From Hormiphora californensis (lineage: Eukaryota; Animalia; Ctenophora): a DNA stretch of 64,000 nt. The notes under the pieces are model-generated. The model worked only from the letters and a program-made list of their open reading frames with translations. It did no database searches and was not told the origin of the DNA. Of this stretch, positions 32,127 through 55,199 are shown piece after piece. Made by a program: the position numbers and the translations under genes. The stretch lies in NCBI GenBank assembly GCA_020137815.1, contig CM035352.1, positions 2,914,001 through 2,978,000 on the forward strand, given 5' to 3'. Position 1 is the first letter of the stretch. Each line of letters starts with the position of its first letter.

Positions 32127-32899
32127 TTAGTTGTTTAGCGGCGCCATACCCCATTTGATTCTCAGTGCGCTCAGATGGGTCGCGGCGCCAGACAGTTTAG
32201 CCGCGGCCGCTCAATTGAGTCAGATGTGTGAGCTACCCGCCACCCGGACTGTCATGGTTCCAAATATCGATGCCCTGACTCTGATCATATTCTTGGGCAC
32301 GTCGCGCCCTCTTTTTTCGCGCGCGATTTTTCGCGAACCCCTCACACAGAGGGCACAGTCACGACTAGAGCACTCGGAAAGTGCTTAGCTTCGCTAAACG
32401 GCGCTAGTTAGCGCTTTAATTTTTAGTTTTTCTGATTGGCACTATCTCAAACTGGTGCAACGTATTTGTCTCGATCTATAACTCTCAAAAACAGTGGCGT
32501 AATCGCCGATTTCTGTATACAGTTTTTTGGCGATTACGAGAGATTGAGGGATCTGACAAACACAAAATTCTGGATTTATAAACTTCAGACAATTTGCCAC
32601 CTTCCTACCAAAGGATTTTGTCTGGGGACTTCTGGCCTTTGATTGACAGCCAATTAAAAATATTTGTCCTGAATTTAGTGGGGCTAGTGTGCTAAACCAT
32701 GGCCTCTATTGCAGTAATCTCTTGTGTGTGATTGGCTGATGATGGAGTGAGGTCACGGGGACCCTTTTAATTGTACAACGTGGAACCCACGTTTGCTTGC
32801 TGTGGTGAGTCGTTACTACACGTGATCAATTAAAGGACCAATATCTGTAGCTTATCGGCCGATATAGCCGATCCGATATCGGTCATGTGGGACGCCTGG

Positions 32900-33290
32900 C
32901 ACGTGATTCGAGACCAAGTGAGGCACCCCGTTCTGGCCTCGATTGGTTATTGATGCAGTCATATGGTGATCACGTGTCCCATGTTATGACCAATATGGTA
33001 ATAGGTGGTTCACGTGATACGTTTGTTCTACCGAGATTGGTTTGGACCAAGTGAGGTACCTGTTCTGGCCTTGGTTGGCTGTTGACTGCAGGCAGTGAAA
33101 TCATGGACCCATGTTATAACCAATATGGTCAATTTACAGACGCATGTTATGACCATATGGTCAATACGTGGTTCACGTGATGCGTTTGTTCTGCTGTGGT
33201 TGGTTCGGACCAAGTGAGGCACCCGTTCCGACCTCTGATTGGCTGTTGACTGCAGTCACGTGGTGATCAGGTGACTGATTTTATGACCAT
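32900..33290. repeat. Three degenerate 130-165-bp direct repeats rich in CACGTG/ATTGG, left of the viral genes
   Basis: GACCAAGTGAGG(C/T)ACC at ~32912, ~33045 and ~33208. Confidence 0.7.
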
Positions 33291-33504
33291 ATATGAGAGG
33301 GAGAGAGAGAAGAGAGAGAGAGAGAGGAGAGAGAGAGAGAGAGAGAGAGAGAGAGAGAGAGAGAGAGAGAGAGAGAGAGAGAGAGAGAGACAGAGAGACA
33401 GAGAGAGACTGCTCACGACAGTCAACCGGAGAATGCGCGTCTCATGGGAGAGAAAGTTAAAATAAAACAAATTTATTTACCATGAAATATTAAAATGAAT
33501 CATT

Positions 33505-33939
33505 CTACATCATTCTATATACATCGAATCGAATACAAGCGAGACATTCAACTTGCCAGGCTGTTGACGGACGGGAGTTTCTCGCAATTTCTATTAGATC
33601 ATCTCGCTCAATATCACTTTTGATTTTCCTTGTGTCCGCTGGCGTGATTATAAGTCGAGCCGTATCAAAAACCATCGTGTTGTTTGAAGGATGATAAAAC
33701 TTCATATTATCGGTGGGAAGATGTCGCATGATGTATCCAAAGGCTACATTGAGCTTCACATGTTGTTTGTAGTTAGATAGAACTTCGTCCAGCTTACCAG
33801 ATATTTTATCTGTCAAGGACAACGGGAAATGATACACATCTTTCAACTTTCCTCTCTTAACACTTTTTTGAATTGGTGACCAATGTTGACGATAGATCCC
33901 CTGAAATTCTTCAGGGATAGATTCAATAAACGATTCCAT
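33505..33939 (-). CDS. Stand-alone homolog of the N-terminal (terminal-protein-like) region of Polinton pPolB
   Basis: Motifs YRQHW..I, KLNVAFGYIM, FYHPSNN..FD, DDLIE.AR..RPST.W.V, F.VY match my recollection of the pPolB segment preceding the vOTU domain. Stop is followed by AATAAA. Confidence 0.65.
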   Translation of the reverse strand: MESFIESIPEEFQGIYRQHWSPIQKSVKRGKLKDVYHFPLSLTDKISGKLDEVLSNYKQHVKLNVAFGYIMRHLPTDNMKFYHPSNNTMVFDTARLIITPADTRKIKSDIERDDLIEIARNSRPSTAWQVECLACIRFDVYRMM

Positions 33940-34032
33940 TCTAAAATTGAGTTGAAAAACGTTAGTTACTGAAACTTTAATATTAGTACACAGTAAGACA
34001 CATCTGATTCAATAATAAGGTTACAAATCATA

Positions 34033-34434
34033 CTAGTTTAGTTTTCTCTTCTTTGCAGGTGATTTATTGTAGATTAATTTATCAACTTCCTCGTTTACAT
34101 ATCTTCCATAGTAAATAGCCTCTGGGGTCACAGTTAAGATGAAACTTCGCCCGCACGAAATGTAACACTGACGATCCTCCTCTGGTTTGTCTGACTGGGG
34201 AAGTTTCGGTTTAAGAGTCTCGTACTCTTTTGAAAGTGTTCTGAGAAGTTCCCCTTGAGCAGTGAAGAAATGTTTCCCCAATTTATCCAGCAGAGAGTCC
34301 TGTTGACACATGTGTAGAATTGGTGACTTCAAACCAGCTTTGTGAGCTGGGCATGTTTTCTCCGATATCCTACAGACTTTCCGAACCATGCTATCACATA
34401 GTGCTGCAGTCCAAACATTCTCAAAATACAACAT
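34033..34434 (-). CDS. Viral hypothetical protein with C-terminal NLS-like PAKKRKLN
   Basis: 133-aa ATG ORF divergent from the integrase, sharing a TA-rich promoter region. Confidence 0.6.
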   Translation of the reverse strand: MLYFENVWTAALCDSMVRKVCRISEKTCPAHKAGLKSPILHMCQQDSLLDKLGKHFFTAQGELLRTLSKEYETLKPKLPQSDKPEEDRQCYISCGRSFILTVTPEAIYYGRYVNEEVDKLIYNKSPAKKRKLN

Positions 34435-34570
34435 ATTACAACTGTGATATAACAGGTGAATTTCAACTCGATCTTCCTATATATATATATATATATATAC
34501 TATATATAAGAGGTACTAGGCAAGTTCTACCCCTCTTATCGACGTGTTTATTTGTTTCATCCGCACAAGT

Positions 34571-52894: not shown

Positions 52895-53571
52895 TACTCG
52901 TATAATAGCCCATGTTATATCTAATCACTCAACTCCTGCTACCCAAACCGCAGTTTCCATATTTTATCGGTTATCCCACCCCAACACCCCTAACTCACCC
53001 CCTAATCAACCAGGCCCTAACACCCCATCTCCTCCTCTCCAGGACCACTCAGAGCCGGAATCCGAGTTGAATGTAACAAACTGCACCACATGTTATTATG
53101 ACGGCAACTGTGGCCTGTGGATGCTGTTGTGATGTGTGCTGTGATGTCAGGACATTGAAGAAAAAAATTCCTTACTCCCCTAACACTGCATACATCATCT
53201 ACTGACTGCAGTATTGATCCAGCTCCATTTTAGCTGTTTACATGGAATGGGAATAGAATTATAAATACAGTGAATGGACTCATTATAAACAATACCAAAT
53301 ATTGGAAGGATCCCGTGGTAGAAATATGACAGTGGACACTGGACACTCTTTGTTGGACGTGCACATTTTTTGGATCGAATAATTTTTGAGCGTCCCATGA
53401 GGTGTTTTAGGATGTTCTCAATTCTTACTCGGTGATATTAAAAACACAAATCTTAGGTATCCATTGCTATATATTACAGAGTGGATGGAAATTGGAAAAT
53501 TAGTTTTGAATACATAGAATTCATAAATATATTCCCCCCCCCCCCAAAAAAGTGTCATTTTTGCTAATATA

Positions 53572-53706
53572 CAGTCGGTTCCCGATTTACCGCGATGCTC
53601 GGGGGAAAGATATTGCCTGATAATTCGGGGTGCCCGGGTCAAATAATGTTAATTTCTTATCCCGGCTCGGGTATATATCAACGACCGGTAAATTGGGGTC
53701 CGACTG
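53572..53706. mobile_element. Tigger/pogo-like MITE
   Basis: TA-CAGTCGG...CCGACTG-TA. Confidence 0.75.
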
Positions 53707-54310
53707 TAACTTAATAAATAGTTCTTTGTCCATCACAATCTTTTAACACTTATTTCCAGGTACTGATCATTGAGTTTCGAACAATGCCGTGTAAACTGTC
53801 CTCTATCAAGAATTATGAAGCTCCCATCATCCGGTGTAGGACTTTTTCATGACAGAGGTATGGTATAATGTTAATTAACAATCAGGTCATTATCAGGTCA
53901 TCACAACACTTTAGGTTGTGGCAAACATATATTTGCCACAACCTAAAGTGTTTCAATTTGTATCCAGCTCCCTCTACACCCGGTCGAGCACTTTCGTGGC
54001 CGTCGCCGCCCCGTATTGTATATTTTCCAGTATAAATCCTAAATCGCATTCTCTCTTCACTCTAATTTAAAATTATATCTCTCTCACCTAGTTTGAATCG
54101 GTCCTGACCAAGATGTTAACGTTGGTACATATTTGTCCTTTTCCTTCTCAAGTTTCGAATAATGCCATGTGAACTGTCCTTTCATCCCGTTCCCGAAAAT
54201 GAGGTAACAAGATTTAAGTATTTATTTTATGAGTTTTGAATAATGTTTAAGGGGTCATCAATTCAGCCCTAAATTACAAATTGGCTTAATTCAGTTTTCA
54301 GATGGTGCTA

Positions 54311-54482
54311 CAGTCGGACCCCGATTTAGGGACACCCTCGGGGGAAAGGCTCTTGTCCACTAAATCGGGGTGTCCACTAAATCGGGGTCAAATAAGGTTA
54401 ATTTCCTATATCGGGGGAAATAAATCCTGTCCCTAAATCGGGGTGCCACTAAATCGGGGGCCCCTAAATCGGGGTCCGACTG
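54311..54482. mobile_element. Tigger/pogo-like MITE (same family as 53572)
   Basis: TA-CAGTCGGACCCCGATTTAG...CTAAATCGGGGTCCGACTG-TA. Confidence 0.8.
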
Positions 54483-55129
54483 TAAAATGAACATGGTGGC
54501 CACTTATGTCACACTTATACCCTAAGATTTAGTCGGGGCGCGCGCGGTTGTTTTTAAAATAAAAGTTGAAACGTGTCAGCAGTTCGTGGCGTGGTGTGTG
54601 TGTGCGCGTCTTAGCAACCCCTGAACTTACTGTGACAGCGGGCCTAGCCCCTACGGGGCTTGCCCGCTTCGCGGGCAAAGCACAACCAAAAACTGCAGCC
54701 CCCCCCCCCCTCTTCCCAGTGAGTGTAACCTCCTAGATACACTAGAAAAGTGAGATCGTGGCGTAGAAACTAGAGAGGAAGAGAGATACAGGCATTTATA
54801 TGCAGCGGGAAAGTGTCGTATTAAAATCGCGAAAATGATGCGACACTTTTCCAAAATTCTCGGGAAGAGCGAAATTTTGAAAAAATCAGGTTGTTTCAAA
54901 GTTTTTTGAGGTAGGCTCATTGGTGGTTGGTCCTATCAGGTTAAAACCGGTACTACGTGAAAATTCAGACAAAATTGTTCGACCGACTTTTCACCGATTT
55001 TTGAGATCAGCCCTACTTCCAGAGCTATGGCGATTTCAAAATATTTGGTCGAAAAGACGGTTTTTTGAGGTCACTTTTTAGATTTCTCTAGTTTCACCTG
55101 TACTTGCTCATTTTTCGTCTAGTTTTCAC

Positions 55130-55199
55130 TTGGGCACGTCGCGCCCTCTTTTTTCGCGAACCCCTCACACACCCTGCGGAGGGGCTGCTTCGCAGCCAA
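55130..55199 (+). mobile_element. 70-bp mini-element supplying the right end of the 22.9-kb composite
   Basis: Starts with a near-copy of the 32293 left end and ends GGCTGCTTCGCAGCCAA. Its own two flanks do not match; its right flank matches 32284-32292. Confidence 0.8.

Follow-up and report, generated by a model that had tools for sequence, protein, structure and literature searches.

Viral genes lying between the ends of a cut-and-paste transposon are known from Teratorn, a fusion of piggyBac with an alloherpesvirus that has its own transposase and replication genes. The available text of PMC10175614 presents it as a fusion recurring across teleost genomes. In maize Ac/Ds macrotransposons and in the foldback-flanked Ising transposable element (TE) of Drosophila, the ends of two insertions in direct orientation bracket nested DNA within one target site duplication (TSD); foldback-flanked composite elements of this kind in Drosophila are treated in excerpts of PMC6431247. 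In the protist Halocafeteria seosinensis, Polinton-like viruses and virophages, partly as incomplete and decayed genomes, are described in or among host TEs, with Polinton-like viruses nested in host TEs, among them loci where Mutator-like elements (MULEs) are abundant (10.64898/2026.07.28.741278, in the portion consulted). Polintons themselves (Mavericks) are characterised by hallmarks that include polB, long terminal inverted repeats (TIRs) and a 5-6-bp TSD (from the part of PMC12220804 used here), and Polintons devoid of PolB that keep their TIRs and carry TEs have been reported (10.1101/2025.02.07.637071, available sections). Nested Polintons and macrotransposition are thus both already described. 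The literature searched, in which most subscription papers and the supplements were not included, yielded no case of another DNA transposon carrying a Polinton as cargo within its ends. Here we describe a Polinton remnant inside a transposon-bounded unit of 22,907 bp (32293-55199) in the ctenophore Hormiphora californensis, located in a stretch of 64,000 nucleotides (assembly GCA_020137815.1, contig CM035352.1, positions 2,914,001 to 2,978,000) referred to below as the window.

A sequence-only reading of the window had proposed that this unit is a composite MULE that moves a virus module as its cargo. The anatomy, the TSD-bounded unit and the broken integrase have stood up to analysis, while movement as a viral cargo system and the MULE label have not. 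The locus shares with animal Polintons/Mavericks of the rve-integrase type the genes for integrase-chromodomain, ATPase, capsid and protease, ordered as in the metagenomic relatives L005, L012 and L016, but it is a remnant in which no polB core, TIRs or 6-bp TSD were identified and in which the integrase is frameshifted. As in Teratorn, viral genes lie between transposon ends; unlike Teratorn, the unit is seen at one locus, and the interior open reading frames (ORFs) tested revealed neither a transposase nor viral replication genes with a polymerase core. With respect to Ac/Ds and Ising, whose movement was shown genetically, movement is here only possible, and the end family, with its 9-bp TSD, is a different one. 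The Halocafeteria loci differ in that MULEs there lie mostly inside viruses, and the part of that source consulted describes no TSD-bounded outer unit.

An exact 9-bp duplication around the unit

The window is repeat-rich eukaryotic DNA with a guanine-cytosine content of 35-50%. The 9-bp direct repeat ATCATATTC is present without mismatch on the plus strand at 32284-32292 and at 55200-55208 and brackets 32293-55199, as had been noticed earlier; for a given 9-mer the chance probability is 8e-6, in line with the earlier judgement that coincidence is unlikely. The unit opens with a left end, L_A (32293-32704, plus strand), that belongs to a multi-copy, non-autonomous DNA transposon family with 9-bp TSDs, and closes with a 28-bp right end of the same family (55172-55199, plus strand). 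On the plus strand the family has three left ends in the window, starting at 32293, 47060 and 55130, and two right ends, ending at 54678 and 55199. Exact 9-bp direct repeats surround two of the five possible left-right pairs, 32293-55199 and 47060-54678. L_A and the left end at 47060 are 75% identical over 382 bp. Moreover, a complete 39-bp member on the minus strand (51254-51292), made of 28 bp of left end and 11 bp of right end, also has an exact 9-bp direct repeat, so that both further members previously credited with their own TSDs do possess them. A loose scan pairing 536 TTG[GC] starts with 451 [GC]CAA ends returned four pairs, namely the three family members and an unrelated one. A fifth 9-base match to the start of the left end, at 2127, was left uncounted, the family sequence not continuing there.

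The length of the duplication can be read from a nested member, element C (47060-54678, plus strand; 7.6 kb), which interrupts the right arm of a foldback element. The undisturbed left arm has the target 9-mer of element C once (45980-45988, in the overlap of two arm matches), whereas in the right arm it occurs twice, around element C; the family therefore duplicates 9 bp on insertion. The 9-bp duplication around the 22.9-kb unit is real.

From left to right the unit consists of the 412-bp left end, a 568-bp repeat, a (GA)58 tract, the Polinton, unassigned DNA, the foldback with element C and 70 terminal bp. The Polinton accounts for 9.6 kb (42%), the foldback with element C for 9.7 kb (42%) and the unassigned DNA for 2.3 kb. 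All viral genes lie within 32293-55199, between family ends, as stated in the sequence-only reading. The foldback comprises a left arm (45387-46327, plus strand), the inner part of the right arm (46705-47059, minus strand) and, beyond element C, the middle part of the right arm (54679-55129, minus strand), which is 96% identical to the left arm. Its start at 45387 is deduced from a limited resemblance to the terminus at 13136, which scores 39 where shuffled sequences have a mean of 23 and a maximum of 35.

Rearrangement of the right end

In the final 70 bp, a 42-bp piece of a left end of L_A type adjoins 28 bp of right end, a structure that involves two deletions. The left-end portion, L_B (55130-55171, plus strand), sits in the foldback arm and belongs to the L_A subfamily, but has lost 14 bp that lay between short direct repeats; the hairpin and the subterminal region of L_A are missing from it. 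This agrees with the earlier suggestion that a second insertion had taken place at the right end. The right arm of the foldback stops at 55129, and its outer ~159 bp are not present elsewhere in the window, which bears out the observation that the arm does not resume after the unit. The duplication expected for L_B can be predicted from the intact left arm: the corresponding 9-mer is found at 55121 and in the left arm and is absent on the right of L_B. Because this predicted duplication is missing, a rearrangement took place at 55171-55199. Furthermore, the long subterminal sequence of a right end is missing at 55199, where 28 bp are left. In the interval 32705-45390 no family right end was found, all four queries scoring at the level of shuffled sequences; this rules out two complete flanking elements and leaves room for a move out of a nest. 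The unit has in common with macrotransposons that ends of two insertions stand in direct orientation within a shared TSD, though the 28 bp on the right may belong to the outer element as its original end.

A decayed Polinton within the unit

The viral block is a decayed Polinton/Maverick remnant and not a complete element. Its left edge is the (GA)58 microsatellite (33295-33408, plus strand), and its first two ORFs lie on the minus strand. The ORF at 33505-33939 stands alone and resembles the N-terminal part of a 735-amino-acid ORF in the polB region of locus L023, with a stand-alone homolog in L020; it is not a polymerase core. A search for longer relatives of this ORF (queried from 33508) passed none of 186 candidates, and its Atlas matches, all at or below 0.80, are leads only. 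The ORF at 34033-34434 is an accessory one of Polintons, and L012 and L016 contain homologs of it.

The remaining genes are on the plus strand. The retroviral-type integrase with its chromodomain (34571-35666; PF00665 and PF00385) is spread over two frames by a frameshift near 35320-35335, which substantiates the claim that the integrase is broken; both frames occur in one protein in 110 of the 120 top relatives, the other 10 matching one frame. The P-loop packaging ATPase (35699-36301) has an open frame and a weak, sub-threshold match to Pox_A32 (E 0.01), and is 61-67% identical to syntenic relatives. It is followed by a small basic conserved ORF (36280-36591), which we presume to be pVII-like, by a conserved ORF (36757-37461) that, to judge in part by its position, is likely a minor capsid or penton protein, and by a small conserved ORF ahead of the capsid gene (37523-37834), which we take to be pX-like. 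The major capsid protein (37874-39163, open frame) is a predicted double jelly roll: its model (predicted local distance difference test score 86, from 79 sequences) matches the capsid of Paramecium bursaria chlorella virus 1 (PBCV-1) with a Foldseek E value of 3e-16, as well as iridovirus, Sputnik and mavirus capsids. Close EukProt matches exist for both capsid and integrase, with identifiers in 'sb', a prefix of a ctenophore gene set, which would make a ctenophore host likely. A capsid search in viral contigs gave eight stretches, none of them confirmed. The adenovirus/Ulp1-type cysteine protease (39193-39615; Peptidase_C5, E 8e-4, sub-threshold) is 31-46% identical to syntenic relatives and ends about 10 residues earlier than two of them. 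A second penton-like gene (42336-43047) is broken into two frames. The six core genes besides the integrase are open frames, and the order integrase, ATPase, two small ORFs, penton-like gene, capsid and protease has homologs likewise ordered among 23 metagenomic loci.

No Pfam polB match was obtained among the window ORFs tested, and, when four ORFs of the L023 polB region were compared with the window, the N-terminal accessory part alone matched significantly; one of these four ORFs resembles PF03175 clusters. No viral TIRs were found in 32705-45390, which holds just two local palindromes of less than 30 bp. Between the two edges of the block a candidate Polinton TSD amounts to AT-rich short matches, with no termini as anchors. 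The (GA)n tracts are ruled out as Polinton termini, both being on the same strand, and so is the repeat at 32727-33294 as a TIR, its inverted partner not being found. Since no polB core, TIRs or transposase were found, the integrase is frameshifted and the second penton-like gene is broken, the block is a remnant and the unit non-autonomous; what had been called a capsid module looks rather like a decayed remnant among unrelated repeats.

Two observations concern its relatives. In L023 (877-7290) and L009 the protease is followed downstream by a fragmented polB region that lies on the other strand, and L004 (451-2075) has two tandem penton-like genes, so that penton duplication recurs in the clade.

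Read evidence at the left junction

Of the words sampled from 31640-41500, 63-82% were present in six sequencing runs (two samples of one organism), 11-15% in five runs of another organism and none in a further run; the runs with shares of 0.11-0.15 (X7-X11) were not used. Contigs of four runs covering 31720-33290, from two samples of which one is possibly the source of the window, were compared with the sequence. One contig matches 32171-32320 without difference at a depth of 27, with 28 letters on the element side, below the 31-letter rule for a bridge. A depth of 276-291 in S1, compared with 33-60 for pieces close by in X1, marks the left end as multi-copy; in run X1 its opening ~60 bp exceed the remainder in depth about 13-fold (3488 against 276).

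In all four runs the family contigs listed stop matching the window at 32704, about 410 bp into the left end and before the virus. Past this point those of X1 and X2 go on for 277 and 219 other letters, respectively, and the repeat that follows in the window has 61 other letters ahead of its match. Since the listed contigs stop there, they give no sign of the multi-copy left end continuing into the interior. To judge by bin depths (for example 276 x 31/53 = 161.4), 32705-32726 is covered by none of the contigs listed, a gap that proves nothing alone, the records being filtered. The pattern fits a break specific to this copy at 32704; alternatively, both pieces might belong to a single family body, part of which has been deleted from the copy in the window. 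No empty allele was seen among the contigs listed over the left junction; in X6, two left-flank contigs depart from the window sequence, with ends not readable as an empty allele. Scans of viral and metagenome contigs for the end motif gave no match, in collections that need not hold this host. As a separate observation, one X6 contig skips ~373 bp of the left flank (31822-32194), so that the flank is polymorphic for repeat insertions.

Possible histories of the unit

The account to which we give most weight, at somewhat less than even odds, is that a non-autonomous transposon inserted first, was then nested into and finally suffered one deletion, the virus being a passenger. Element A would have inserted with the observed duplication of 9 bp, its place as the initial event being presumed. 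A Polinton would then have entered A by means of its own integrase and later lost polB and its termini, the absences to which the searches point. The foldback, element C and an element B (the source of L_B) would have nested in turn, and the intact left arm does show C and B to lie in the foldback. Lastly, the left end of B may have paired or recombined with the right end of A, with loss of the DNA between them, either because a hybrid excision ended in abortive repair or because the short right ends recombined. Such a loss would remove the duplication of B, the outer foldback arm and the right interior of A, leaving 42 + 28 bp. Nesting plus deletion is favoured because this single event covers three absences (the B duplication, the outer ~159 bp of the arm and the right subterminal DNA) and because the 39-bp member, with its intact TSD, shows that drastic internal deletions occur in the family. 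Also in its favour are the lack of a family right end in 32705-45390, the end of the matches of the listed family contigs at 32704, the modest share of the virus in the unit, the failure to find a transposase among the interior ORFs tested, and the Polinton-like viruses described as nested in host TEs. The truncated arm had been taken as a sign of joint movement; the same sequence results if the DNA between the nested left end and the outer right end is deleted, so the truncation is no proof of such movement. The unit has both ends and could be movable if a transposase were supplied in trans; a move together with the virus remains hypothetical. Several points weigh against this history. Macrotransposition from a nest leaves an identical sequence with about as many events. 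The 7.6 kb of mixed repeats in element C, set in a foldback with arms 96-97% identical, suggests that junk-laden units can move. Compared with the family contig, L_A has 5 differing letters in 387 and a further 2 in gaps, no more than the divergence between the foldback arms, and a younger age of the interior relative to A is therefore not evident. The depth of the left-junction contig, about half that of some neighbours (27 against 33-60), fits a young insertion on one haplotype, with the reservation that depth is not copy number. Finally, the contigs on either side of 32705-32726 may be one family body.

Nearly as likely is a one-off macrotransposition, in which the virus is equally a passenger: the nest would have formed elsewhere, with a mini-element in the foldback arm, and a transposase acting in trans would have treated the right end of the mini-element and the intact left end far from it as a pair, moving 22.9 kb including the virus remnant to the present site. 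The exact 9-bp TSD around ends of two insertions speaks for it, as do the excess depth in X1 of the left end's opening ~60 bp, which fits many short members, the lack in L_B of the hairpin and subterminal region of L_A, and element C as a hint that large junk-laden units move; maize macrotransposons shift up to 100 kb of nested repeats (PMC3260210, sections consulted). Set against this, no empty allele appeared among the contigs listed, neither a donor site nor a second copy was seen, and nesting with deletion accounts for every sequence feature too. We consider it unlikely that the left end and the viral block are the standard body of a multi-copy non-autonomous transposon, that is, a recurrent cargo family. 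The two multi-copy segments ahead of the virus have similar depths in S1 (276 and 187; 291 and 247) and could continue into it, most sampled words of 31640-41500 occur in runs of both samples, and all six core genes other than the integrase have open frames; an ordinary Polinton family, however, would also give presence in two samples, 32705-32726 is bridged by none of the listed contigs, and the searches made found no polB core, TIRs or transposase in a block whose second penton-like gene is broken and whose integrase is split where 110 of 120 relatives have one protein. The composite as a system, put forward in the sequence-only reading, is accordingly an arrangement shown at this one locus only. 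Still more improbable is an origin by filler capture, in which gap repair copied DNA from another locus in the manner of Ds2 or Pack-MULEs, or by a repeat misjoin in the assembly. A Polinton piece lacking both termini with microsatellites at its borders is what capture could leave, yet 22 kb of nested filler is large for such an event; a misjoin would not produce an exact 9-bp duplication at family ends, and one contig crosses 32171-32320 without difference, albeit with fewer element letters than the bridge rule asks. Filler DNA is frequent in Ds2 elements (PMC3260210, in part).

An unclassified end family with hairpins

The ends of the family are asymmetric, with 7-8 of the 12 terminal bases matching, and short hairpins are abundant in them. 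TSDs of about 9 bp, a trait of MuDR/MULE elements, and of 9-10 bp, a trait of AcademH, are both compatible with the exact 9-bp repeats of three members; non-autonomous elements of either group thus resemble the present family in their TSD, and differ from it in that its ends are asymmetric and rich in short hairpins and no transposase was found with it among the ORFs tested. The long TIRs of TIR-type MULEs were not found at these ends. TIR-less MULEs exist, so that this does not exclude a MULE, and AcademH is defined also by an Academ transposase plus helicase. Published TSD lengths are 4-10 bp for the MuDR group and 9-10 bp for AcademH (PMC10045372, as excerpted). No MuDR-type DDE transposase was found among the window ORFs tested with Pfam, and no transposase of any type by Pfam in 103 interior ORFs (16 of 20 and 87 of 110 submitted proteins being interior). 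With no transposase found among the ORFs tested, the MULE label is a guess, one of several candidates with 9-bp TSDs.

All three right ends (54660-54678, 55181-55199 and 51254-51270) terminate in a C-GNA-G triloop hairpin on the bottom strand of the element, the triloop being GAA in two and GTA in one. The two long members differ at two stem pairs, in each of which both partner bases are altered, as judged by inspection of three sequences, and the left ends also have hairpin arrays. The triloop hairpins likewise come from inspection, minimum-energy folds having given another optimum. Mini-hairpins of the type d(CGNAG) are unusually stable in single-stranded DNA. The right-end hairpins hint at structure-based end recognition, which would be odd for a 9-bp-TSD family. 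Among the titles listed by a literature search on such hairpins, none dealt with eukaryotic transposon ends.

Other repeats in and around the unit

Direct repeats occur within the multi-copy repeat at 32727-33294, one run showing a 393-bp back-joint; the segment could belong to the transposon body or be a satellite-like repeat in its own right. The unassigned DNA at 43051-45386 contains (TGTC)34 and (GA)58 microsatellites and ORFs that, where tested, had no Pfam match. The interior of element C is a repeat mosaic, likewise devoid of Pfam matches in the ORFs tested; it includes 36-bp and 28-bp tandem arrays, pairs resembling miniature inverted-repeat transposable elements (MITEs), the 39-bp member and, at 47967-48479, what we take to be a possible tail of a long interspersed nuclear element. 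Its position in a foldback with such similar arms indicates either fast nesting or a junk-laden mobile unit.

A foldback relative at 13136-16645 has arms 98-99% identical over 1 kb and an apparent 5-bp TSD, and its internal repeats resemble 46020-47019. Outside the unit, 19735-20981 and 29050-31634 are two 97% identical copies with a 63-bp tandem array, the second with a 1.3-kb insertion. Two near-perfect long inverted repeats, at 61514-62860 (665-bp arms, 17-bp spacer) and 23666-25063 (609-bp arms, 180-bp spacer), are very young foldback or MITE insertions. An ORF at 60734-61249 (plus strand) matches the F5/8 type C (galactose-binding) domain and is likely a host exon. No tRNA genes were found in the window.

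Meaning for the families involved

Viral genes between transposon ends do not alone prove a fusion, and, as a nest or as a one-off macrotransposon, the unit is a clear, ordered example of known processes. As a lead, the unclassified family, whose ends are asymmetric and rich in hairpins, may prove more original. There is a small chance that this hairpin-ended, 9-bp-TSD family spreads a capsid module without polymerase and with a broken integrase as standing cargo through the genome of this animal, which would make it the first Polinton counterpart of Teratorn. If true, this would show how Polinton capsid genes can exchange one mobility system for another within animal genomes, a step assumed by models of virus-transposon evolution.

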